Origin: Spirochaetae bacterium HGW-Spirochaetae-7
GTDB lineage: Bacteria; Spirochaetota; Spirochaetia; Treponematales; UBA12059
Assembly (NCBI GenBank): GCA_002839245.1
Contig: PGXR01000004.1
Coordinates: forward strand, 1 to 41,868
Direction: 5' to 3'
Length of the DNA: 41,868 nt
The notes under the pieces are model-generated. The model searched no databases and was not told the DNA's origin. It saw nothing but the letters and a program-made list of their open reading frames with translations. This document shows positions 3,694 through 14,169 of this stretch, piece after piece. Position 1 is the first letter of the stretch. The number at the start of each line of letters is the position of its first letter. A program made the position numbers and the translations under genes.

Positions 3694-3720
3694 CTGAAGC
3701 TGCCTTTCGTGGTTTCCGCA

Positions 3721-3753
3721 GAAAAGTAAAAACCCGGGTCGTTTGAACCGGGT
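3721..3753 (-). promoter_or_regulatory. Terminator-like hairpin plus U-run inside the 5' leader of the xdh-like operon (possible attenuator)
   Basis: A 6-bp stem ACCCGG/CCGGGT (3732-3737 with 3748-3753) has a 10-nt loop. On the minus strand it is followed by TTTTTACTTTT and lies about 30 nt upstream of the ATG at 3693. Confidence 0.3.
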
Positions 3754-3783
3754 GTTTTGATTTGAAGACGCATAATCCATCAT

Positions 3784-3889: not shown

Positions 3890-4831
3890 ATGGTTTCCTT
3901 CCCCATAGATACCGATGGCGGCCCGCAGGTCGTCCTTGAATTGATATACCGGCTCAAGGTGAAGGACGTGATGAAGGCCGACGTCGTGACCGCCCCGCCG
4001 GGGGCGTCCCTCCGCGATGTCCAGGCTCTGATGCGGGATCGCCGCATCACGGGCATTCCCATCGTCGAGGGGAACCGGCTGGTCGGCATCGTGTCGATCG
4101 GGGACATCATCGAGGCTCTCGACGGCGGCTGGATACACGAGGCGGCCTCCTCGAGGATGAGCAGTTCCCTCATCGTCCTGGAAGAGGACATGCCGCTGTC
4201 GTTCGCCATCACCTACTTCAACCGCTACGGATTCCGCCGCTTCCCGGTGCTGGGCAAGGATACCTCCCTGACCGGCATTGTGACCGCCGCTGACGTGCTC
4301 AGGTCCCTGCTCATCGAGATGAACCGCGAAGTCGGGCGCCTCGAGGAAGGTCTCGCCAAGCGCCGGGCGGCGGGCTCCCAGGGCGCAGGAAAGGATTCTG
4401 CCGCCAAGGCGATGCTCAGCTTCACTACCCGCCGCTTCGATTTCGAGAACGCGGGCAAGGCCTCGGCGGAGCTCAAGAAAGCGCTCAAGGCGCTCGGCGC
4501 GGACTCCGCATCGATACGCCGCGCCGCCATCGTCAGCTATGAACTGGAGATGAACCAGGTGATCCATTCGGAAGGCGGTACCATGGAGTTCACGGCAGCC
4601 GACGGCCAGGCGGCCATCATTGCCAAGGATTCCGGTCCGGGCATAGAAGACGTGGAAGCCGCGCTGACCGAGGGATTCTCGACCGCGAACGACTGGATCC
4701 GTTCCCTGGGCTTCGGCGCCGGGCTCGGACTTCCCAACGCCAGGCGGTCTTCCGACGAGTTCGAGATTACTTCGAGGGTAGGCGTCGGCACCACCGTCCG
4801 CGCCCTCGTTCGATACCAGGAGCAACAATGA
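3890..4831 (+). CDS. CBS-pair domain protein fused to a histidine-kinase-like ATPase (anti-sigma / serine-kinase-like) domain
   Basis: The 313-aa ORF carries two CBS-like segments (VKDVMKADVVTAPPGASLRDV...GIPIV and FRRFPVLGKDTSLTGIVTAADVL). Its C-terminus (DSGPGIED...GFGAGLGLPN) resembles the G-boxes of the HATPase_c fold. An alternative start at ATG 3971 has a better RBS, but it would clip the first CBS motif. Confidence 0.75.
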   Translation: MVSFPIDTDGGPQVVLELIYRLKVKDVMKADVVTAPPGASLRDVQALMRDRRITGIPIVEGNRLVGIVSIGDIIEALDGGWIHEAASSRMSSSLIVLEEDMPLSFAITYFNRYGFRRFPVLGKDTSLTGIVTAADVLRSLLIEMNREVGRLEEGLAKRRAAGSQGAGKDSAAKAMLSFTTRRFDFENAGKASAELKKALKALGADSASIRRAAIVSYELEMNQVIHSEGGTMEFTAADGQAAIIAKDSGPGIEDVEAALTEGFSTANDWIRSLGFGAGLGLPNARRSSDEFEITSRVGVGTTVRALVRYQEQQ

Positions 4832-5160
4832 AGGTTTCCGATCTCTCTTCGCGTTTCGGCTTCGAAGCCGTCTTCGTGCCTCCCCTCGATGCCGCGATCG
4901 TCAATGCCTATACTTCCGACCTGCTGTCCGACGTGATGGGCAAGGCGGCCGAAGGCTCGGCCCTGGTTACCGTGCAGGCGCACAAGAATACCGTGGCGGT
5001 CGCCTCGCTCGTCGGCATTCGCGCGGTCGTCATCTGCAACGAACGGACCGTGCCCGACGACATGGTCGAGGCGGCAAAGGCGGAGGACGTCGCTATTTTC
5101 AGGACGCCTCGGACCCAGTTCGAGGTTTCCGGGCTCCTGTACGCGGAGCTCCACGGCTAG
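4828..5160 (+). CDS. DRTGG domain protein
   Basis: 110-aa ORF. It shares an ATGA start/stop overlap with the upstream gene. The sequence ...AYTSDLLSDVMGKA...LVTVQAHKNTVAVASLVG...VICNERTVPDDMVEAA is typical of small DRTGG proteins. Confidence 0.7.
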   Translation: MKVSDLSSRFGFEAVFVPPLDAAIVNAYTSDLLSDVMGKAAEGSALVTVQAHKNTVAVASLVGIRAVVICNERTVPDDMVEAAKAEDVAIFRTPRTQFEVSGLLYAELHG

Positions 5161-5179
5161 GGCAAAGCCGGGGACCCCG

Positions 5180-5914
5180 ATGTTCGTCGCCTGCGATTTC
5201 CACAATCACTCGTGCCTCTCCCCCTGCGGCAGCCTGGAGCAATCGCCGGCGGTACTCGCCCGGCTGGCCCGGGAGAGGGGGCTGGAACTCGTCGCGCTGA
5301 CCGACCACAACAGCGCGCTGAACGCGCCCGCCTTCGCCGCCTGCGCCGCCAGGGAAGGCTTGTCGGCTCTGTTCGGCATGGAAGCGACGAGCGCCGAGGA
5401 GGTGCACGTGCTGTGCCTGTTCGCAGATCTCGACGCGGCGCTCGATTTTGGCGGGCATATCGCGTCGCTCCTGCCGCGCCTTCCGTACGATCCCGGGCTG
5501 CTCGGGGACCAAGCTGTGGTAGACGCCGACGAGAACGTTCTCGACCTGCCGGACACCTGGTTCTGCGCCGCCCTCGAGCTGGGCTACAACGAACTGTGCG
5601 CCGACGCGGCTGCCCGCGGGGCGCTGGTCATCCCGGCCCATATCGACAGGCCGATGTTCGGGGCCATATCCCAACTCGGCTTCCTGCCCGAGGGGCCGTA
5701 CTCGGCGGTAGAGGTCGTCCATCAGCTGCCCGCGGGTGTCTCCCTGGGCTACACCGTCATTACGGGCTCCGATGCCCATTATCCTGAGCACATTGGCAGG
5801 AGGCCGTTCGGTCTCGACCTGCCAGCCGGATGGAACTCGGGAGGCAAGGTCGACCTCGAGGCCGTGCGCGAAGCCCTGGCCGCGGGACTCGTCCGCCTCC
5901 CGTTCGCCCCGTGA
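5180..5914 (+). CDS. PHP-family (polymerase/histidinol-phosphatase-like) metal-dependent phosphoesterase
   Basis: 244-aa ORF. Motifs: CDFHNHS at the N-terminus, LTDHNS, IPAHIDRP and TGSDAHYPEHIG. Confidence 0.8.
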   Translation: MFVACDFHNHSCLSPCGSLEQSPAVLARLARERGLELVALTDHNSALNAPAFAACAAREGLSALFGMEATSAEEVHVLCLFADLDAALDFGGHIASLLPRLPYDPGLLGDQAVVDADENVLDLPDTWFCAALELGYNELCADAAARGALVIPAHIDRPMFGAISQLGFLPEGPYSAVEVVHQLPAGVSLGYTVITGSDAHYPEHIGRRPFGLDLPAGWNSGGKVDLEAVREALAAGLVRLPFAP

Positions 5915-8900
5915 TTCATGGCGTGCTGTTGCTGGCCCTGGCCAGCCTCCTATCGGCTGCGCCGCTGCAGGCCGATGTGGTGGAGATGCCGCCGGATTGG
6001 CTGGACGAGACTGTCGTGCTGTCAGCGGCGGAAAGCAGGTTTTCGGTGGCGGAGCGCCTGCGTGTGCACGTGGAGAGGCCGCAAGGAGCTGCCGCCTCGG
6101 CCTTCGGGGCGATTCCTGACAGGCGCTTGTTCTCCAGGCTTCCCGTTGGGGACGGTGAAGGCGTCGGAGAAGCGCTCGGCATGGCGCCGTTCTCTTCCGC
6201 GGCAGTCTGGATAGCGTTCACCGTGATGAATACGACAGAAGACGCGGCCTGGGCCCTTTCGGCCCACGGAGAGGGATTCAGGCCGACGGCGATGGTCATC
6301 GCGACCGGGGATGGCAGCCGCGAGCAGTTCAGCGGGGTTGCCCTCGCGAAGCTGCGCCACAAAGCCGGATTCATCGGCCTTGTCGCGTACCAGGTACGCC
6401 TACCCGCCGGGGGTCAGTCGACTGTCTACCTTCGATTCGATGCCGGTACGCCGCTCGGTCCGGATTTGAGCCTGTGGAACATCGCGGCATTCCTTGATTA
6501 TGTGGAGATGCTCGCCGGCTTCGCTGGCGCCCTCATCGGGTTGGCTGTCCTCGTCTTCACCGTCTACGTATTCCAGGTCGCGCGGCACGGCCAGGACGGA
6601 GGGTCGATCTCGTTACGGTATGCGTACGCGACGCTGGCCCTCTGTTCCATCGCGCTCGGGCATCGGGGCGGCGGGTACCCCGCCATGCTTGCCGGAACCG
6701 CCGCCCTGGCGGTGGAGGCGATTTCAGCCATCGCTCCATTGGCCGGCCGAGGCTACCGGGCTTCGACGGTCTACCGTCATGTCGTGCCCAGGCTGGCGTT
6801 TGCCTCGGCGCTGGGCATCGCGCTCGGCCTCGCCCCTTCGGCGAAAAACCTGTCCCATTCTCCGTTCTCGTTGCTCGCGTGGTTGGTGCTGCCCGTCGGC
6901 ATGCTCGCGCAGCTCGCGCTTCTTGTCGCTATCGAGGCTGTCGCGTACACCCGCAGGGCGAAGGCCGGTACGGAAGAGGCGGACAGGCTGACGACCAGGC
7001 TCGAAGCCGAGATACGAGGCGGAGCCGATTTCATGACGGCCACGGCGGCTGCGCTGCGCGGTCCGCTGTACGGTCTCCTGGGCATACTCGAGGATCTGGA
7101 CGCCGTCGCCTCCGACCTGCCTTCGATACCCAAAGCCGCGGCGTCCGATCTTGCACTGGCCCGCGCCGAGGCCGCCAGGCTCGACAACCTCGTCTCGAAC
7201 ATCCTCAGTTACTCGGGAGTGGGGCTGTCGCGTCTGACCGTCGAGGATATCGATCTGTCATCGCTGGCAAGGGCGGCGGGAGGCTTGCTGCGCGTGGCGG
7301 TAGCGGGTCGGGGCATTCATATAGAAGTCGAAGCGCCAATCATCGAGATGCGGAGCGACCTCGGCCTCGTCCACCGACTACTGTATACCGCGATGAACCA
7401 TGCAGCCAGGGCCGACGGCGCGACTCGCGTCCAGTTGACGGCTTCTTCCGACGATACGAGCGCCAGGATCCTGATCGCGGGCGACGGCCTCGACCTCCAG
7501 CAACCCGTTCCCGGGCACACTCCCGTCCTGGACATGGACCTGACCGTCCTGTCCAGGCTCACGAGCATGCTTGGCGGCACTTTCTCCAGTCAATCCATCG
7601 ATGACCAGACTATCCTGTCCTTCAGGTTGCCCCGCTACATAGACCCGCCGGACCAGGCGCGCGATGGCGCGGGCCAGGGATCGACGCTGCCACTCGCGCA
7701 GCTGTCGCGGCCTCTCGTCGACGAGGGGGATTTCCGGGCCAGCGGCGACAGGGGCCTGGCGGCCGGCAGGGTCCTCGTCGTCGGCAACGAGCCGGTGGCG
7801 CTCCTGGCCATCAAGCGCCGGCTCGAGTCATCGTCATGGAGCGTCGAGGTTACCGTTTCCGCCGTCGACGCCCTCTCAAGGGCCCTTGGCCCGGATCCGT
7901 TCGACATCGTCATCATCGACTCCGCGATGCCCGAAATGAGCGGCTTCGCCTTCTGCGAAGCGGTACGCGAGACCCGTGGGCCGGAGGCGGTGCCCATAAT
8001 CCTCCTCGTCGAAGCCGGACGTGCCGATGAGATAGAGCATGCTTTCAGGTGCGGAGCGAACGACTACATAGCCAGGCCCGCTTCCGGAGTGGAGCTGGAA
8101 GCGAGGGTGAAGACCCATGTCGACCTCGCCTCCAGCGTCAGGCGGGAACTCGAGCAGGCAGCCAGGATGGCCGAGTTCGATAAGTACCGCACCCTCGCGT
8201 TGCTGTCGGCCGGGGTAGCCCACGAGATCAACACGCCGAACAACGCTGTCCTCCGCAACGTGCCTATACTCAAGGAAATCTGGTCGTCGCTTGACGTGGT
8301 CGTCGAGAGGCTGCATCGCGAGGAGAGCGGATTCAGTTTGAGGGGTTTCGGCTACGACGACCTGAAGCGAGATATTCCGGACATGCTCAACGACCTGTAC
8401 ATGGGAGCCCAGGACATCAAGAAGATAGTAGAGGGACTCAAGGATTACGCCAGGGCGCCTTCCGACGCCGCCGCGCCGTCTCCTGTCGACGTCAACGAAT
8501 CGGTGCGCTACGCGGTCAGGCTCCTCAAGCACACCATCGCTGTGTCGACCGAGCGCTTCGAGACTGTTCTTCCGGACGGCTTGCCGCCGGTCAGGGCGGA
8601 CCGGCTCAAGCTCACGCAGGTCGTCGTCAACGTGATCGAGAACGCGTTGCAGGCCTTGCCGGACAAGAGCCGGGGAGTCAGGATCGAGACGGCGGCTTTC
8701 GAAGCGCCAGGCGGCATCGCTTCGGTGCTTGTGCGGGTCGTGGACGAAGGCACCGGCATGACGCCGGAGACCCTCGCGTCGGTATTTCATCCGTTCTTCA
8801 CGACCAAGCGCGACCGGGGCGGCAGCGGCCTGGGGCTGGCCGTGGCTTCGGGGATAGTCCACGACATGGCCGGGTCGATAGACTTCAGCTCGGTTCCGGG

Positions 8901-8970
8901 AACGGGAACCGAGGCGACGATACTGATACCGGCCGCCGGCCGTACCGGAGGGAGCGACGATGGACGATAA
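5911..8970 (+). CDS. 7TM-receptor hybrid sensor histidine kinase: periplasmic domain, 7TM, His-less HK-like module, atypical receiver, functional HisKA+HATPase
   Basis: The track ORF starts at 5830. I prefer GTG at 5911, which forms a GTGA overlap with the PHP stop and yields the signal peptide VIHGVLLLALASLLSAAPLQA. The second H-box is GVAHEINTPNNAV, and the ATPase boxes are VIENALQA and DEGTGM...GGSGLGLAV. Confidence 0.85.
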   Translation: MIHGVLLLALASLLSAAPLQADVVEMPPDWLDETVVLSAAESRFSVAERLRVHVERPQGAAASAFGAIPDRRLFSRLPVGDGEGVGEALGMAPFSSAAVWIAFTVMNTTEDAAWALSAHGEGFRPTAMVIATGDGSREQFSGVALAKLRHKAGFIGLVAYQVRLPAGGQSTVYLRFDAGTPLGPDLSLWNIAAFLDYVEMLAGFAGALIGLAVLVFTVYVFQVARHGQDGGSISLRYAYATLALCSIALGHRGGGYPAMLAGTAALAVEAISAIAPLAGRGYRASTVYRHVVPRLAFASALGIALGLAPSAKNLSHSPFSLLAWLVLPVGMLAQLALLVAIEAVAYTRRAKAGTEEADRLTTRLEAEIRGGADFMTATAAALRGPLYGLLGILEDLDAVASDLPSIPKAAASDLALARAEAARLDNLVSNILSYSGVGLSRLTVEDIDLSSLARAAGGLLRVAVAGRGIHIEVEAPIIEMRSDLGLVHRLLYTAMNHAARADGATRVQLTASSDDTSARILIAGDGLDLQQPVPGHTPVLDMDLTVLSRLTSMLGGTFSSQSIDDQTILSFRLPRYIDPPDQARDGAGQGSTLPLAQLSRPLVDEGDFRASGDRGLAAGRVLVVGNEPVALLAIKRRLESSSWSVEVTVSAVDALSRALGPDPFDIVIIDSAMPEMSGFAFCEAVRETRGPEAVPIILLVEAGRADEIEHAFRCGANDYIARPASGVELEARVKTHVDLASSVRRELEQAARMAEFDKYRTLALLSAGVAHEINTPNNAVLRNVPILKEIWSSLDVVVERLHREESGFSLRGFGYDDLKRDIPDMLNDLYMGAQDIKKIVEGLKDYARAPSDAAAPSPVDVNESVRYAVRLLKHTIAVSTERFETVLPDGLPPVRADRLKLTQVVVNVIENALQALPDKSRGVRIETAAFEAPGGIASVLVRVVDEGTGMTPETLASVFHPFFTTKRDRGGSGLGLAVASGIVHDMAGSIDFSSVPGTGTEATILIPAAGRTGGSDDGR

Positions 8971-10366
8971 GCGCGGCACTATCATCGTGGTGGACGACGA
9001 CGTCGGGGTGCTCAAGCGGCTGGAGCGGTCGCTGCGCTTCGAAGGCTACGGCGACGTGGTCCTGTGCGAGCGGGCGGAGGATGCCTGGCCCGTCCTCGAT
9101 TCCCGCAAGGCGCTGGCGATGATCCTTGACCTGATGATGCCTGGCGTCGACGGCTACGCCATGCTCGAGCGGATGCGCACCGAACGGCCCGACGTTCCGG
9201 TCATCGTAGCCACGGCCATCGACGACCTGGACGCGGTGGTGCGTTGCATGAAGGCGGGAGCCTTCGACTACGTGCCCAAGTCGGCCGAGACGGCCAGGCT
9301 GGTCGCCAGCCTCGAGCACGCCACGATGATAGGAAGGCTCCTGGATGACAACAAGGCTCTCCGCGACAGCCTGCTTTCCGACAGCGGCCGGTCTGCCCCT
9401 TTCTTTGAGCACATCATCACCCGCGACCGGCGGATGGCGGACATCTTCCGCTACATAGCGGCCATAGCCATCAGCGACAAACCCATCCTGATCACCGGCG
9501 AGTCGGGCACGGGCAAGGAATTGTTCGCCGCCGCGGTCCATGCGGCATCGGGCCGATCGGGACAGCTCGTCACCGTCAACATAGCCGGCCTCGACGACGC
9601 GATGTTCAGCGACACGCTGTTCGGCCACAAGCGCGGAGCGTTCACGGGCGCTGATTCTGACCGGCCCGGCCTCATAGAGCGCGCCAAGGGCGGTACGCTG
9701 TTCCTCGACGAGATAGGCGACTTGCCGCAGCAAAGCCAGGTCAAGCTGCTGCGGCTGATAGAGCAGCGGCTGTACTATCCGCTCGGGGCCGACCTCACCA
9801 GGTCGTCCGATGCCCTCGTCGTCGCGGCGACGAACAGGGACCTGGAAGCGGCCTGCGACTCGGGCCAGTTCAGGCAGGACCTTTACTATCGCCTCGAGAC
9901 TCACAGGATCCGCTTGCCACCTCTGCGCGAGCGTCTGGACGACATTCCGCTGCTCGTCGAGTCGTTCGTCGCCCGCGCTTCGGTCAAATTCGAGAGGCCG
10001 GAGCCGTTGGTCCCCCCCGAGCTCTACGAGCTGCTCGGCACCTATGATTTTCCCGGAAACGTCCGCGAGCTCGAGTCGATGGTCTACGATGCTGTCGGCC
10101 GGGCTTCCGGCCGCAACCTGTCGCTGGAGTCGTTCAAGTCGAGGGTATTCAAGGAAAATTCCAGGCCTTCCGCGGCCCGGTCGCTGGCCGCGGGCATCTT
10201 TGCCTCGTTGCCGTCGCTGCCGACGCTCCGCGAGGCGGCCGACTCGCTGGTAGAGGAAGCCCTCGCGAGGGCGGGCGACAACCAGGGCGTGGCGGCAGGG
10301 CTTCTCGGAATTTCCAGGCCGGCGCTCAACCGCCGCCTGCGTCAACGCGGCGACGACGAGTGCTAG
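8960..10366 (+). CDS. Sigma-54-dependent response regulator (NtrC family: REC + AAA+ + Fis-type HTH)
   Basis: 468-aa ORF. Walker A is GESGTGKE. The GAFTGA sigma-54 contact loop is present (HKRGAFTGAD). The motifs GGTLFLDEIG and FRQDLYYRL are present, and the C-terminal HTH reads AAGLLGISRPALNRRL. The start overlaps the kinase stop by 11 nt. Confidence 0.92.
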   Translation: MDDKRGTIIVVDDDVGVLKRLERSLRFEGYGDVVLCERAEDAWPVLDSRKALAMILDLMMPGVDGYAMLERMRTERPDVPVIVATAIDDLDAVVRCMKAGAFDYVPKSAETARLVASLEHATMIGRLLDDNKALRDSLLSDSGRSAPFFEHIITRDRRMADIFRYIAAIAISDKPILITGESGTGKELFAAAVHAASGRSGQLVTVNIAGLDDAMFSDTLFGHKRGAFTGADSDRPGLIERAKGGTLFLDEIGDLPQQSQVKLLRLIEQRLYYPLGADLTRSSDALVVAATNRDLEAACDSGQFRQDLYYRLETHRIRLPPLRERLDDIPLLVESFVARASVKFERPEPLVPPELYELLGTYDFPGNVRELESMVYDAVGRASGRNLSLESFKSRVFKENSRPSAARSLAAGIFASLPSLPTLREAADSLVEEALARAGDNQGVAAGLLGISRPALNRRLRQRGDDEC

Positions 10367-10572
10367 TGGGGTGTGCAAAAGCTGACACCTGTCGATTGTC
10401 GTATACATGGAGGCAATTGGCTCCCTGATATGCAAATAGACGCGATTTACGGCTGATTTAATCTATAGTTTTTGCTGGATTCGAACATGGGACTTGCCGC
10501 AGCGGATTTCGATCTAGGCCGACAATTACATTAGCTGTATGGAAATACAAAATAGCATGAAGCCATAGTCGT

Positions 10573-10589
10573 TGGCACGATCCGTGCAT
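10573..10589 (+). promoter_or_regulatory. Sigma-54 (-24/-12) promoter
   Basis: TGGCAC-gatcc-GTGCAT at 10573-10589. GG (10574-75) and GC (10586-87) have the canonical spacing of the consensus TGGCAC-N5-TTGCW. It sits about 205 nt downstream of the EBP gene. Confidence 0.7.
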
Positions 10590-10598
10590 AACAATAAG

Positions 10599-10742
10599 TG
10601 GTCAGCTTGAGTCCCATTCCATGTAAAAAATGTTCAGGTAAAAAAGTCATATAAAAAAGTTCAGAACAAAACAAGGGACTGATGTAAAGATTGAAAAATG
10701 GTTTATACGCGGAACGCCTGACCCGGCGTTCCGCAGTTTTTT
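10599..10742 (+). ncRNA. Candidate sigma-54-dependent small RNA (about 145 nt, no credible ORF)
   Basis: The predicted TSS lies about 11-12 nt after the -12 GC. The segment holds only 1-7 codon ORFs (ATG-TAA, MFR*, MVYTRNA*). It has three A-rich imperfect repeats, TAAAAAA(T)GT(T)CA, at 10623-10664. It ends at the terminator at 10709-10742. Confidence 0.5.
10709..10742 (+). terminator. Rho-independent terminator
   Basis: A perfect 10-bp stem GCGGAACGCC/GGCGTTCCGC (10709-10718 with 10725-10734) has a 6-nt loop. It is followed by AG and then six T (10737-10742). Confidence 0.8.
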
Positions 10743-10844
10743 AAACCAGCGCTCCATGACCCCGCAACCTCTCGCTCGCTGCCCGGTCGAACTGGGCATG
10801 GATCGCGGCGCGCTTAAGCGCGGCGGCGACTGAAAGGTGATTGC

Positions 10845-11516
10845 ATGTCAGAAACTGTCCTCGAACCCGGTTCGTTGTCTCCTGTCCGCTATCCTCTCGG
10901 CGAGGAGATAGCGAATGCGGTGACCCATGGAGTCTGGGCTCTGCTGTCGATTGCCGGCCTCGTCATCCTGGTGGTGTCGGCCGCCGTCCGGGGCGATGCG
11001 TGGTACGTCGTTTCATTTGCCGTATTCGGCCTCTCCGCCGTTCTCCTGTTTACCATGTCCACCATCTACCACGCAATCGCGGCGCCACGGGCTAAACGGG
11101 TGCTGAAGGTGCTCGACCATTCGTCCATCTATGTGCTTATAGCCGGGACCTATACGCCGTTCGCGCTGACCGCTCTCAGGCATACGGTCGGCTGGCTGGT
11201 CTTCGGCATCGTCTGGGGCGCGGCAGCCATAGGCATATCGTTGAAACCCTTCCTGGCCGGCAAGGCCAGGCTGCTGTCGACCATATCCTATGTCGCCATG
11301 GGTTGGATCATCGTAATAGCGTGGCGTCCGCTCGTCGACGCGGTCGAGGCGGGCTCCCTGCGCCTGCTCATTGCCGGCGGCCTTGCCTATACCGTCGGGG
11401 CGGCCTTCTACATGATCAAGGGCAGGGTCTGGTCGCATCCGCTGTGGCACCTGTTCGTCGGTGCCGGCGCGACTCTGCATTTTTTCGCCGTGATTGCCCT
11501 GCTCCCGCCTGGATAA
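10845..11516 (+). CDS. Hemolysin III / PAQR family channel protein
   Basis: 223-aa, 7-TM ORF. It has the N-terminal EEIANAVTHG and the motifs STIYH, LDHSSIYVLIAGTYTP and HLFV....H. Confidence 0.88.
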   Translation: MSETVLEPGSLSPVRYPLGEEIANAVTHGVWALLSIAGLVILVVSAAVRGDAWYVVSFAVFGLSAVLLFTMSTIYHAIAAPRAKRVLKVLDHSSIYVLIAGTYTPFALTALRHTVGWLVFGIVWGAAAIGISLKPFLAGKARLLSTISYVAMGWIIVIAWRPLVDAVEAGSLRLLIAGGLAYTVGAAFYMIKGRVWSHPLWHLFVGAGATLHFFAVIALLPPG

Positions 11517-11677
11517 TATGAGCCAACCTGGGAAGGGGAATTGGCTCGCTCTGTACTGAGCGAAGCGACAGTATATAACCCGAATCGAGGACCAAAGGCC
11601 GCGATTCGGAACGTAGCTCAACCTGACTCACTTCGTTTGCAGGTTAACTGTGCTAGAAGATGAGTCATGATTACACC

Positions 11678-11693
11678 GCCCGCGCTAGCGGGC
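11678..11693 (+). other. GC-rich hairpin immediately 5' of the intron insertion point
   Basis: GCCCGC-gcta-GCGGGC. It is followed by ATATGATAT and then the intron 5' GTGCG at 11703. Confidence 0.6.
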
Positions 11694-11702
11694 ATATGAT
11701 AT

Positions 11703-12640
11703 GTGCGCCCGGCAGGACGCACCCACCAGGAGGTGCGGCGAGAAATCGTCGAGTCCTCTACAGGCCCAACAGGGGTAACTGTCAGCGACCGGCAAGGGTG
11801 TCCATCGTGAGATGGAATCTGAAGAAAGCCATAGCAAAACGCGGCCTGTCGCTTGCGCACCGAAGGCCCGAACAGAAACCGCATGCGAGGCAGCCATGAT
11901 GGACAAGGGGGCATAATTGCCCAAAGTCCTGTACCTGTACGGAAATCATGGCAGTATATACGGCAGGCATAAGCGTGAAGGTGGCTCATGACAGTAGTCA
12001 TGGCGCATTACCCGGGGAGGTCTGGATGCCTGCTGAAAGGCTACCTTGGTCGCGAGGCCGGGGGATGGGCAGCCAGCCGGAAGTCAGCAGAGGTCGTAGT
12101 AGGACCGATCAGCGGGGTCGAAGGACCGAACATGAGACGCGGATGTATCCCAGCGTCTCGCGGCGGAGCAGGATGTTGAAAACAGACGGTTAAAATCCCG
12201 AACCACTCGCAAAACAATCCGGACGGAATCCGGGAGTAGCGCGGATAAGTGGAACATCACAAAGCCCAGCGACAAAGGACACGAGCGCGCTGATGGTATA
12301 AGAGTGTTTATAGAACTCGACCAATGGATACGGCGCAAGCTCCGGTGCATTACTGGCAACAATGGAAACGACCGCGAACTCGATTCAGGTACCTCGTCAG
12401 ACTCGGTTTGGATGAAGAGAGGGCACGAAAGTCGGTTGGGAACGGTCACGGGGCGTGGTTAAACGCTGGTGCCAGTCATATGAATCAGGCAATTCCCGTT
12501 AGACTCTTCGAGAGGCTTGGGCTTCTCTCCCTTTACTCCAGAATGCTTGGGTTTCAGAGCATTTCATGAACCATCGTATACGAAACCGTACGTACAGTGG
12601 TGTGAGAGGAGGGGGCCGTAAGGCCCCCTCCTACTCGGTA
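11703..12640 (+). mobile_element. Degenerate, maturase-deleted group II intron (3' boundary approximate)
   Basis: The 5' end is GTGCG at 11703. A domain-V-like hairpin spans 12570-12601: a 9-bp lower helix, a 2-nt bulge (c12591, g12592), a 4-bp upper helix and a 4-nt loop. Its CGTATAC...GTACGTAC sequence resembles known domain V sequences. A domain-VI hairpin spans 12603-12637 with a GTAA loop and a single bulged A at 12633. Only an IEP C-terminal remnant is present. The many short ORFs on both strands are consistent with structured RNA. Confidence 0.7.
12324..12569 (+). pseudogene. C-terminal remnant of a group II intron reverse transcriptase/maturase (IEP)
   Basis: 81 aa: ...HYWQQWKRPRTRFRYLVRLGLDEERARKSVGNGHGAWLNAGASHMNQAIPVRLFERLGLLSL... 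This matches the conserved IEP tail pattern (W.K...R...L..LG......A.S..G.W..A.S......P...F...GL.SL). The RT domains are absent. Confidence 0.7.
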
Positions 12641-12781
12641 AGGGGGCGTTGGGCGGAACCGAACCCATCGCCGCAAGCCGGTGAGCGGCAGACGAGCGCA
12701 CGCCAAAGGCGCGAAGAGGCGCCAGTGATGGCGCCGACAGCGAGCGTTGGCGGCCCGGACACGAGGTCGAGGGCCAGAGGG

Positions 12782-12819
12782 CGATTCCGCCCGGCGCATT
12801 AGTCCGCCGGGCGGAATCG
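12782..12819. terminator. Perfect 15-bp hairpin downstream of the LRR gene (possible bidirectional terminator)
   Basis: CGATTCCGCCCGGCG (12782-12796) pairs with CGCCGGGCGGAATCG (12805-12819) across an 8-nt loop. There is no clean U-run on the minus strand. A T-rich tract follows on the plus strand. Confidence 0.4.
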
Positions 12820-12840
12820 AGGTAACTTATAGTAATTTTT

Positions 12841-14169
12841 CTATTCTTGCTCTTCGTAATATACGGTCACACCCGCGGCTATCAGGTCTTCAATATTAGC
12901 CAAGGCCGCTGAGCCAGTTGAAATATCGAGACCCATATATTTTATGTTAATCTCCGCCGAATTCTCTTGGAACGATCCGGCTAGGTACATCTTCCAGAGG
13001 AAGTCGATGTCGTCGATATCCGTGTTCCCCTCGAGGTTTATGTAGTTGAGGGTGCCGTACCAGGCTGGTAGGTAGTCTCCGTCCTGGCTGAAGGCGACGG
13101 AGCTGAGAGCGTTATAACTGACGTCCATGCCGGTAAGGAGCGGAAGAGGCGCTATCGATGACATGAACATGGCGTTGGTAATATTCGAACTACTGATGGT
13201 AATCCAGTCTAGGGTTGCAGAAAACTTCGTCATGATGGTTGATAGGACGCTTCCCGTAATATCGGGGAAGCTCCTGATGGTTAGATTTGTCAAGTCAGTG
13301 AACCTGTTCAATATAGTCTTGAGTTGCTCCGCGGTGATATAGGTAACGCCGTTCATCTGACCCCTAATGCCAAGGGCGAATAGATCGGGGAAATTCTCGG
13401 GCGTTATAATCGAGCTTAGGTTATTATAGGGGATGGGGTTATTGTGTAGACGCAGCAACTGCAGCTTATGAAGTCCACTGAGCGCTGTAACATCAGAGAT
13501 GGTGTTGCCTTGAAGCGTAAGCCGTTCGAGTAGAACCAACCTCTTTATCGGGCTTACATCCGTTATGGTGTTGAACCTAAGGTGGAGCTCTCGCAGGGAG
13601 TGGCATAGGTCGATTCCACTGATGATGGCGATGCTAGAGGAATCCGCAGTAAAGACATCGATCGCGTCGAGGTCCGCCGTGCTGATTCCCTCAGACCAGG
13701 GCGTGCCTGCCGCGGTCGCGAGGGCTGCACGGAGATTGGCGTCAGGTATCCTCGCCACGAAATCAGAAATGACGCCCGAGGTCATGAAGGTCCAAGTGGG
13801 GCTGGCTTTAATCTGGCCGCCAGGCAATTTGGCTACGACTTTCCATTGGAAGTCCTTGGCGCCGGACAGAGCCGCCGGTGGCGTCCATGATGCAGAAGCG
13901 AGGTTGCTTGCCGTTGGCGTAGAGGGGATCGAGTCCTCGCCGAAATAGAGGTCGTAGGTAACACTAGACCCGTCGCTGGCGACGGCCTCAGACCACGCTA
14001 TAGTCGCGATGTCCGCGGCGACGCTGTAGGCAAAATCAGCCGGGACCGGTGCCGAGGGGCTCGTGATGGTTGCGTTGGAACTGATGGGGCCGATGGGGTC
14101 CGTGCAGCTCCATGCCAAGACGATGACGAGGGCGAGACACGCGTTCCAGAAAAGGCGTTTTATCTTCAT
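12841..14169 (-). CDS. Secreted/lipoprotein with an Fn3-like domain and internalin-type leucine-rich repeats
   Basis: 442 aa. The signal peptide MKIKRLFWNACLALVIVLAWSC has a Cys after the hydrophobic core. LRR units include LRELHLRFNTITDVSPIKRLVLLERLTLQGNTISDVTALSGLHKLQLLRLHNNPI. GC content is clearly lower than in the flanks. Confidence 0.8.
   Translation of the reverse strand: MKIKRLFWNACLALVIVLAWSCTDPIGPISSNATITSPSAPVPADFAYSVAADIATIAWSEAVASDGSSVTYDLYFGEDSIPSTPTASNLASASWTPPAALSGAKDFQWKVVAKLPGGQIKASPTWTFMTSGVISDFVARIPDANLRAALATAAGTPWSEGISTADLDAIDVFTADSSSIAIISGIDLCHSLRELHLRFNTITDVSPIKRLVLLERLTLQGNTISDVTALSGLHKLQLLRLHNNPIPYNNLSSIITPENFPDLFALGIRGQMNGVTYITAEQLKTILNRFTDLTNLTIRSFPDITGSVLSTIMTKFSATLDWITISSSNITNAMFMSSIAPLPLLTGMDVSYNALSSVAFSQDGDYLPAWYGTLNYINLEGNTDIDDIDFLWKMYLAGSFQENSAEINIKYMGLDISTGSAALANIEDLIAAGVTVYYEEQE

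Follow-up and report, generated by a model that had tools for sequence, protein, structure and literature searches.

The intergenic region at 10367-10844 of contig PGXR01000004.1 from Spirochaetae bacterium HGW-Spirochaetae-7 lies between the gene of an NtrC-type sigma-54 activator, an enhancer-binding protein (EBP), and trhA, a hemolysin-III/PAQR gene. It very probably harbours an independent small-RNA gene which is linked to the EBP and has a sigma-54 promoter of its own, a judgement that is built on sequence comparison. All positions refer to the window, i.e. the whole stretch of 41,868 nucleotides that was analysed; the features are compiled in Table 1. Behind the TAG stop of the activator gene (10364-10366) the G+C content drops from the ~0.65 of the flanking genes to 0.37-0.43. 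Regulatory RNAs of spirochaetes beyond Borrelia and Leptospira are almost unknown, and no report of a sigma-54-dependent small RNA in spirochaetes was found in the literature searched. The kind of gene arrangement, in contrast, is already known, since CbrB-CrcZ, NtrC-NrsZ and DVU0679-Dv_sRNA2 are precedents.

Table 1. Features of the small-RNA locus and of the adjoining genes (window positions; ORF, open reading frame; MFE, minimum free energy; UAS, upstream activator site)
Feature	Position	Strand	Remarks
Sigma-54 promoter TGGCAC-gatcc-GTGCA (TGGCACgatccGTGCA; TGGCACGATCCGTGCA)	10573..10588	+	GG 10574-10575, GC 10586-10587
Predicted primary transcript, ~144 nt, non-coding	10599..10742	+	start inferred from the -12 element; end = T-run
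Helix P1, 5' arm AGUCCC	10610..10615	+	pairs with 10675-10680 in MFE and centroid folds
A-box 1 ATGTAAAAAATGT (AUGUAAAAAAUGU)	10621..10633	+	read from sequence; fits A-K-G-U-A5-6-G-U
A-box 2 AGGTAAAAAAGT (AGGUAAAAAAGU)	10636..10647	+	consensus copy
A-box 3 ATATAAAAAAGT (AUAUAAAAAAGU)	10649..10660	+	read from sequence; fits family consensus
CA-rich A-tract GAACAAAACAA	10664..10674	+	right before P1 3' arm; aligns with the relatives' fourth A-rich unit
Helix P1, 3' arm GGGACU	10675..10680	+	closes 59-nt loop holding the A-boxes
Degenerate A-box GAUGUAAAG	10681..10689	+	after P1
Intrinsic terminator GCGGAACGCC-TGACCC-GGCGTTCCGC	10709..10742	+	terminator scan; stem 10709-10718/10725-10734, 6-nt loop
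Candidate UAS1 TGTGCAAAAGCTGACA, variant of TGTGC-N6-GCACA	10372..10387		6 nt after EBP stop, 201 nt upstream of -24
Tentative second activator half-site GAACATGGG	10483..10491		~100 nt downstream of UAS1, ~90 nt upstream of promoter
Two-box motif GCAACY-N16-GTCNAM	10764-10791		between RNA terminator and trhA start; 1 match vs 0.08 expected in window
Hemolysin-III/PAQR gene (trhA)	10845-11516	+	NCBIfam TrhA 236.8 bits vs cut-off 80
Upstream signalling operon	3890..10366	+	five tightly packed ORFs; Pfam and NCBIfam scans
CBS-pair/HATPase protein	3890-4831	+	Pfam/NCBIfam
110-aa protein, weak DRTGG / HPr-kinase-N similarity	4828-5160	+	Pfam/NCBIfam
PHP phosphoesterase	5180-5914	+	Pfam/NCBIfam
Hybrid histidine kinase, 7TMR-DISM sensor, 1046 aa	5830-8970	+	Pfam/NCBIfam
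NtrC-type sigma-54 activator (EBP), REC-AAA+-HTH_8, 468 aa	8960-10366	+	Pfam/NCBIfam

The activator and the loci compared

No named NCBIfam equivalog (NtrC, AtoC, ZraR, GlrR, LuxO and others) reaches its cut-off with the activator, which is therefore regarded as a member of an uncharacterised subfamily of the NtrC family. In a protein search it falls into a distinct orthologue group: ~107 protein clusters are at least 53% identical to it, before the list drops to generic NtrC-like proteins at ~50%. The closest species-level genome is that of an uncultured Treponemataceae, a metagenome-assembled genome (MAG). Loci with relatives of the activator were drawn from species genomes, from metagenome contigs and from an exact look-up of 11 proteins (56-83% identity). 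Twenty-three of them have enough downstream DNA and make up the orthologous set, with EBP identities of 44-92%; in L089 the contig ends right at the promoter. The DNA fetched amounts to 1.15 Mb and includes ~150 loci of other EBPs.

In all 23 orthologous loci the same module follows the activator gene: a sigma-54 promoter, an A-rich stretch of 100-280 nt without a conserved ORF, and a G+C-rich hairpin with a T-run. It is on this conservation, not on the window alone, that the significance of the module rests. The genes for the PHP phosphoesterase, the kinase and the activator stay co-linear with the RNA in relatives down to 55% activator identity. The first-pass annotation, which had read the window as containing a candidate small RNA under the control of the EBP, described a unit that is tied to the activator, syntenic and devoid of a conserved ORF wherever orthologues of the activator could be examined.

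EBP homologues at 45-50% identity, from Geobacter, Desulfobacterota and others, were rejected as family members: many of them have a sigma-54 promoter downstream, most of which drive protein-coding genes. The exception among the distant homologues is L050, a Spirochaetia locus with an EBP identity of 44% and the same architecture. A different element was encountered in two loci from Competibacteraceae / proteobacterial MAGs (L012 5612-5790, L013 5610-5770), where a non-orthologous NtrC-type gene (~50% activator identity) is followed by a sigma-54 promoter, a leader of ~150-170 nt and a conserved small ORF starting with MCNASDRIQF. It is unrelated to the spirochaete RNA. Finally, one of the four assemblies with an identical activator (L001) has an N run at 4712-4769, over the 3' half of the small RNA and the trhA leader; the shorter intergenic distance in this contig is due to this assembly gap.

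Promoter, activator sites and ends of the transcript

The -24/-12 element that had been noticed behind the EBP gene is indeed there, with the GG-N10-GC spacing, and begins 206 nt past the EBP stop. Its sequence, TGGCACgatccGTGCA, deviates from TGGCAC-N5-TTGCW by one mismatch and is the sole match in the window with no more than one. By chance 0.69 such matches are expected in a window of 42 kb, and 49 of 100 shuffled windows have one; with two mismatches allowed, 13 matches stand against 13.7 expected. Within the window alone, the promoter match is not significant. This is one reason to consider a more sober explanation of the locus, that it has no dedicated RNA function at all and is an AT-rich spacer or a 3' untranslated region, where something like a sigma-54 site has arisen by chance and the EBP operon ends at an ordinary terminator, or that it encodes a tiny peptide. 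The terminator scan predicts no terminator between the EBP stop and the promoter, so that read-through from the operon could also feed the RNA and reach its terminator, as has been reported for cbrB-crcZ (PMC5113210). We consider this explanation very improbable, for the element does not behave like a chance site. TTGGCAYG-N4-yTGCw is found at the equivalent position in all 23 orthologous loci with its spacing kept, while the intergenic sequence around GG-N10-GC diverges completely between them. The distance from the activator stop is 198-366 nt, or 198-277 nt if one leaves out a single locus (22/23).

The region upstream of the promoter, to which the first-pass annotation had pointed for possible EBP sites, contains a conserved palindrome. 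In its strict form, TGTGC-N6-GCACA, it occurs eight times in the 1.15 Mb fetched, and all eight copies lie between the EBP stop and this promoter in orthologous loci, at -197 to -238 from the -24 element. Nineteen of the 23 loci have a relaxed form between -192 and -238, and 18 of these copies fall within -192/-217 or -232/-238. The palindrome is likely the binding site of the activator, to judge from its position and conservation. Its confinement to this intergenic region is strong circumstantial evidence for the link to the activator and likewise disfavours a functionless spacer. As to a second site, AAAA-N-GCACAGGG is seen ~96-98 nt downstream of UAS1 in about half of the loci that have one (range 78-109). 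The assignment of this second half-site is weak and tentative, because the copy in the window is degenerate.

The transcript predicted from the promoter ends in an intrinsic terminator, which had been recognised by eye and was also picked up by the terminator scan. Eight of the 10 bp of its stem are G-C pairs, and AG plus T6 (10737-10742) follow. Across the family the terminator is strong, with T-runs of T6-T10. In an alignment of 16 sequences its helix is paired in 100% of the cells, and 8 of 10 pairs show compensatory changes; the helix is thus firmly supported. The terminator loop has a peculiarity of its own. It reads NGGGCC almost invariantly in 14 of 16 homologues (alignment A3, columns 135-140), even where the stem is fully changed (L171, L006), which is unusual for a terminator; in the window it is UGACCC (10719-10724). 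Since the loop is conserved and the stem beneath it covaries, the hairpin may have another role besides termination, e.g., in protein binding or a kissing contact.

That the region has no ORF of more than 7 codons, as had been claimed, holds for ATG starts only. With TTG or GTG starts the longest one has 15 codons and begins with TTG, and the advocate of a tiny peptide may refer to it. Neither type of ORF is conserved. Across the relatives the longest ORFs of the RNA region comprise 1-31 codons, no peptide is common to them, and frame, length and sequence differ in every relative, single-base indels being frequent; such inconsistency speaks against a coding function. Two mechanical ORFs on the minus strand (10531-10674 and 10647-10799, 47 and 50 codons) overlap the small-RNA gene. 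They are not considered as genes, because the relatives' ORFs at this place have 0-66 codons without any consistency. The body of the RNA consists of A to 42%, and as a single sequence the window RNA folds marginally better than its shuffles (z = -1.99).

Of course, a transcribed stretch in front of a gene could also be its leader. The first-pass annotation itself had named read-through into the hemolysin-III gene as the finding that would turn its small RNA into a 5' untranslated region or attenuator. According to this explanation, the RNA is a sigma-54-dependent leader of trhA, and a factor binding to the repeated boxes described below decides, in the manner of TRAP and PyrR, whether transcription passes the terminator. 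Motif repeats ahead of a terminator are indeed reminiscent of attenuators that depend on a protein; trhA is the next gene on the same strand, ~100-250 nt past the terminator, in 15 of the 23 loci, and a scan of 10000-11200 gave no sigma-70-like promoter. The remaining neighbourhoods, however, are hard to reconcile with a leader. In L090 a convergent alanine racemase gene (Pfam E = 2e-49) ends at the terminator, and in L006, L008, L091, L174 and L175 a convergent ORF or gene call without a Pfam match does the same. In L092 an unrelated co-directional kinase gene comes next. In all seven the RNA is kept. Obligatory read-through into trhA is therewith excluded in L090 and probably in the five loci with similar neighbours. 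Also, the terminator is strong, and a conserved antiterminator or alternative helix competing with it was not found; only an alternative pairing of 4-5 bp is possible.

Moreover, trhA appears to have a promoter of its own. Downstream of the RNA terminator there is the two-box motif GCAACY-N16-GTCNAM, which recurs upstream of trhA in at least ten other loci (L005 5803-5830, L007 5844-5871, L086 4363-4390, and within L165, L166 and L169-L172, besides the assembly copies of the window) and elsewhere in the loci only ~5 times. By its shape we take it to be a predicted promoter of the ECF-sigma type. This suggests that trhA, a gene of PAQR-type membrane homeostasis, may be under the control of an extracytoplasmic-stress sigma factor. 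Because of the convergent neighbours and the promoter-like motif of trhA, the RNA is regarded as the product of a separate gene; that it is a trhA leader is improbable, if somewhat less so than the absence of any RNA function.

A-boxes, helix P1 and the mode of action

The A-rich character of the RNA is due to repeats. Three units had been seen by eye, and they are present, at the positions of A-boxes 1 to 3. A repeat search pairs two of the three (79% identity), and Tandem Repeats Finder reports no array in the A-rich region, the units being too short and too diverged. The motif was, therefore, characterised by k-mer and position counts, which singled out GTAAAAA in 11 of the first 12 RNAs. 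From 79 aligned instances the consensus A-K-G-U-A-A-A-A-A-(A)-G-U ('AKGUAAAAAAGU') was derived. An A occupies position -3 in 84% of the instances, although this position was outside the search pattern; G or U is found at -2 (G in 52%), G at -1 in 63%, and a U always follows the G(s). The boxes are phased, with a modal spacing of 14 nt and a secondary peak at 28 nt. They are three-fold enriched over dinucleotide-preserving shuffles of these RNA bodies (57 observed versus 17.9 +/- 3.5; none of 500 shuffles reaches 57), a further fact that a spacer without function would not explain. By prediction they are unpaired more often (0.69) than the remainder of the RNA body (0.49). Outside these RNAs the extended box occurs five times in 180 kb of related DNA, both strands taken together.

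The number of boxes is far from constant. Strict copies range from 0 (L091) to 11 (L092), the window having 3, and the RNAs measure 102-278 nt across the homologues, in which the box is kept. The clearest case of an expanded array is L092 (4152-4455): its 278-nt RNA contains the 11 strict A-boxes, among them tandem copies of 12 nt that are near-perfect (GACUAAAAAGUA twice), as well as an internal hairpin rich in G+C.

The loop with the boxes is closed by a short helix, P1, which also appears in the MFE folds of 8 of the 12 relatives in a 13-sequence core (EBP identity at least 63%). Its variants comprise A-U instead of the G-C closing pair (L086, L166), a matched C/G insertion (L007, L169), an extension to 7 bp (L086) and U-G. 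In the 16-sequence alignment 94% of the cells are paired and 3 of 5 pairs show a compensatory change. The pairing measures of both terminator and P1 exceed every shuffle and every slid control; the alignment used for these counts was fitted to the covariance model and leans towards it. Support for P1 is moderate. In 10 of the 13 core sequences its 3' arm is followed by AUGUAAA or AGGUAAA, in the other three by UAAG instead. The 5' end of the RNA carries GGUUGG or a near variant within its first 12 nt in ~14 of the 23 homologues; this GGUUGGU element is diverged in the window (UGGUCAGC) and in its closest relatives, L005 and L165.

A covariance model (R1) with P1 and the terminator as structure was built on 13 sequences and scores the window with 120.9 bits. 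It retrieves homologues that were not used for training (L171 with 61.7 bits, L172 with 60.5, L006 with 52.1 and L090 with 30.9) and matches L092, L175 and L008 weakly, at the correct place. In the ~150 unrelated EBP loci (1.15 Mb in all) it gave no match with E of at most 1 except four weak ones on the reverse strand (E 0.07-0.29), which cover the terminators of family members. The supposition that the RNA is outside the known families was borne out by Rfam 15: neither in the scan of the entire window nor in 20 related loci did any family attain its gathering score at this locus. When 10300-10900 was scanned permissively (E up to 10), all matches were at the level of chance. The best candidate was RgsA, with 15.4 bits against a cut-off of 88.4 (E = 0.2); it was rejected, being below the gathering threshold in an alignment that skips 88 model positions. 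Matches to snoRNAs in the same scan are meaningless in a bacterium.

What, then, might such an RNA do? Probably it is through this RNA that the adjacent sensor kinase system exerts its regulatory effect. The following sequence of events would account for the features of the RNA. The 7TMR-DISM hybrid kinase would phosphorylate the NtrC-type activator. The latter would bind to TGTGC-N6-GCACA past its own stop codon and to the second half-site ~100 bp further on, as their conservation suggests. The AT-rich spacer would be looped and sigma-54 RNA polymerase be activated at TGGCAC-N5-GTGCA. Transcription is predicted to proceed from ~10599 to the hairpin and T6 at 10742 and to produce the ~144-nt RNA, in which the short helix AGUCCC/GGGACU would close a large loop exposing three to four mostly unpaired boxes, with another box after the helix. 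The RNA would accumulate and act in trans, its box array serving as a decoy that titrates a putative protein with affinity for single-stranded A-tracts away from mRNAs with the same box. Titration of a protein is the mode of action that we tentatively favour, by analogy with CrcZ, the decoy of Hfq/Crc, and with CsrB and RsmZ, because the motif persists in RNAs that differ widely in copy number, length and linkers, because the phasing is regular and because the boxes are predicted to be unpaired. Taken as a whole, the scheme of a stand-alone, trans-acting small RNA as the direct output of the two-component system, with the decoy step included, is a plausible proposal to be held with the same reserve as this last step.

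The nature of the putative protein deserves some caution. The AGGGA/AGGTA motifs to which the first-pass annotation had drawn attention are real; their reading as CsrA-type sites was rejected, since GGA is not a conserved element and the lone AAGGGAC is the 3' arm of P1. What defines the RNA is A-K-G-U-A5-6-G-U at a spacing of ~14 nt. The classical Hfq distal-face design was discarded too: consecutive A-R-N triplets number at most two in the window, at most two or three in 19 relatives and at most four in three. Given the 2-3 A-R-N triplets per box and the survey of Hfq mentioned below, the distal face of Hfq is an unlikely partner.

Several observations weigh against the proposed circuit. The boxes, with 2-3 and rarely 4 consecutive A-R-N triplets, fall short of those of CrcZ. 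According to a survey, Hfq is found among the spirochaetes only in Leptospiraceae, and the 'Hfq' of Borrelia is actually FlgV (PMC11607428); the best-known binder of A-tracts may, therefore, be absent. In ~180 kb of related DNA scanned, no mRNA with the same box near its ribosome-binding site was seen. The UAS half-sites of the window itself are degenerate (TGACA, GAACATGGG). With three distant members included, RNAalifold recovers only the terminator from the 16-sequence alignment, and P1 is lost. The relatives are, without exception, MAGs or metagenome contigs. Last but not least, a repeated motif might also be an antisense seed in multiple copies.

This last point leads to the competing mode of action. 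The same EBP- and sigma-54-driven RNA could act by base-pairing, through its boxes with U-rich sites (ACUUUUUUACCU) and/or through a GGUUGGU seed at the 5' end, and would then regulate several mRNAs in the manner of Qrr or NrsZ without titrating anything. Base-pairing small RNAs often have their seed at the 5' end, and the GGUUGG element of the homologues would suit this role, as would the predicted accessibility of the boxes; U-rich targets ought to be rare, and hence specific, in a genome of 65% G+C. Also NrsZ, which adjoins the gene of its activator, consists of three repeated modules (PMC4253122). The divergence of the 5' element in the window, L005 and L165 does not fit, however. Further, the flanks of the A5 core differ from copy to copy and the copy number varies up to ten-fold, which is more typical of protein-binding arrays, and A6:U6 pairing is weak. 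No complementary site was found near the start codons of neighbouring genes. Duplex prediction with the RNA body and six neighbouring translation-initiation regions gave long, looped duplexes, with energies and z-scores within the noise of shuffles; the value of -2.4 for the kinase gene is doubtful. Base-pairing looks rather unlikely to us, less attractive than titration and far better than the leader. The two modes of action make opposite predictions for mRNA leaders: a decoy demands enrichment of identical boxes, base-pairing that of complementary sites.

Known systems and neighbouring genes

The closest parallel is CrcZ. It depends on RpoN and CbrB, is encoded directly downstream of cbrB and titrates Hfq through A-rich stretches (PMC4063720, PMC5113210). 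These are six (A-R-N)n stretches with n of at least 4, made for the distal face of Hfq (PMC4063720), as opposed to the A-K-G-U-A5-6-G-U box with its 2-3 triplets and its ~14-nt spacing in the spirochaete RNA. The sensors differ, CbrA there and a 7TMR-DISM hybrid kinase here, where Hfq may be missing (PMC11607428). CrcZ/CrcY of Pseudomonas and Azotobacter share with the locus described here an RNA gene directly after the gene of an NtrC-family activator, a sigma-54 promoter of its own, an intergenic activator site, the lack of a terminator after the activator gene, which makes read-through possible, several single-stranded A-rich motifs and an intrinsic terminator at the end. A homology in sequence or structure is not detectable: Rfam holds a model of CrcZ, and it did not match. 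Moreover, CrcZ measures 407 nt, compared to ~144 nt here, and belongs to a different phylum.

NrsZ of Pseudomonas aeruginosa, the small RNA next to ntrC, has a canonical RpoN promoter and repeated modules (PMC4253122). Like the spirochaete RNA, this member of the NtrB/NtrC system is intergenic and comes right after the activator gene. Its modules, however, are three similar stem-loops that are processed to ~40-nt RNAs, and not short unpaired boxes in one large loop, and no Rfam match links the two. Dv_sRNA2 of Desulfovibrio vulgaris is found directly downstream of the gene for the sigma-54-dependent regulator DVU0679, whose mapped target it is, and related species have retained the RNA together with the binding motif (PMC3333781). 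It stems from another lineage and no sequence relationship could be detected, which limits the parallel to the gene arrangement.

The decoys CsrB, RsmY and RsmZ of the GacS/GacA pathway resemble the present case in that a two-component system drives a multi-motif RNA, the copy number of which varies between species. CsrB and RsmZ titrate CsrA. LadS and RetS, sensors of the decoy-RNA pathway in Pseudomonas, are 7TMR-DISM proteins, and a 7TMR-DISM hybrid kinase is on top also here. The motifs are different: the CsrA decoys are sigma-70/GacA-dependent and display A(N)GGA mostly in hairpin loops, which is not encountered in the spirochaete RNA, where a U always follows the GG, the GG is unconserved and the promoter is of the sigma-54 type. 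Qrr (with LuxO) and GlmY (with GlrR) are further sigma-54-dependent small RNAs near the gene of an NtrC-type regulator and constitute the main output of their phosphorelays. Qrr works with one long conserved seed and depends on Hfq; GlmY mimics GlmZ to titrate RapZ. The spirochaete RNA is homologous to neither and has no comparable seed. In short, it belongs to none of the families compared (CrcZ, NrsZ, Dv_sRNA2, Qrr, GlmY); the box, its phasing and the phylum are new.

The alignment can be used as the seed of a new RNA family, one that is present in all 23 loci in which orthologues of the activator could be examined. What emerges from the sequence is a testable circuit of sensor kinase, activator, palindromic enhancer, sigma-54 promoter and RNA. 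If the RNA is a decoy, the phased box offers a handle to fish for an RNA-binding regulator in organisms where Hfq is probably missing; if it acts by base-pairing, the output of an orphan 7TMR-DISM/NtrC-type system has been identified all the same. One may speculate further. The A-box RNA could be the titrating arm of an undescribed system of global post-transcriptional control in spirochaetes that lack Hfq, with a putative RNA-binding protein recognising A-K-G-U-A5-6-G-U at mRNA leaders and the level of the decoy set by a LadS/RetS-like 7TMR-DISM kinase via the sigma-54 activator. This is less probable than either mode of action taken by itself; if true, systems like Csr/Rsm and Crc/Hfq would be joined by a third one of independent origin.

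Some observations on the surroundings may be added. The first protein of the signalling operon, a CBS-pair/GHKL-ATPase, has a C-terminus resembling anti-sigma-F. Together with the DRTGG-like protein and the PHP phosphoesterase (3890-5914) it precedes kinase and activator, and this triad may be an input module, perhaps for nucleotide or energy sensing. On the other side of trhA, Rfam finds segments of a group II intron, domains 1-4, on the plus strand (11801-11989 with 95.5 bits and 12041-12126 with 50.3 bits). No match to domains V/VI turned up in the Rfam scan and no ORF of the size of a reverse transcriptase in 11450-12900; the segments lie between trhA and a leucine-rich-repeat gene on the minus strand (12841-14169) and look like what is left of an intron, either truncated or ORF-less. 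The stretch after trhA is lineage-specific, since in relatives such as L165-L168 ThrE genes follow. Outside the small RNA, the plus strand of the window has one other GTAAAAA, at 3726. It was rejected as a target site, because it lies within the hairpin and T-run that terminate the adjacent minus-strand gene. This hairpin with its T-run (aaaaacccgggtcgtttgaaccgggtgtttt, 3715-3760) looks like a bidirectional terminator between that gene and the signalling operon.

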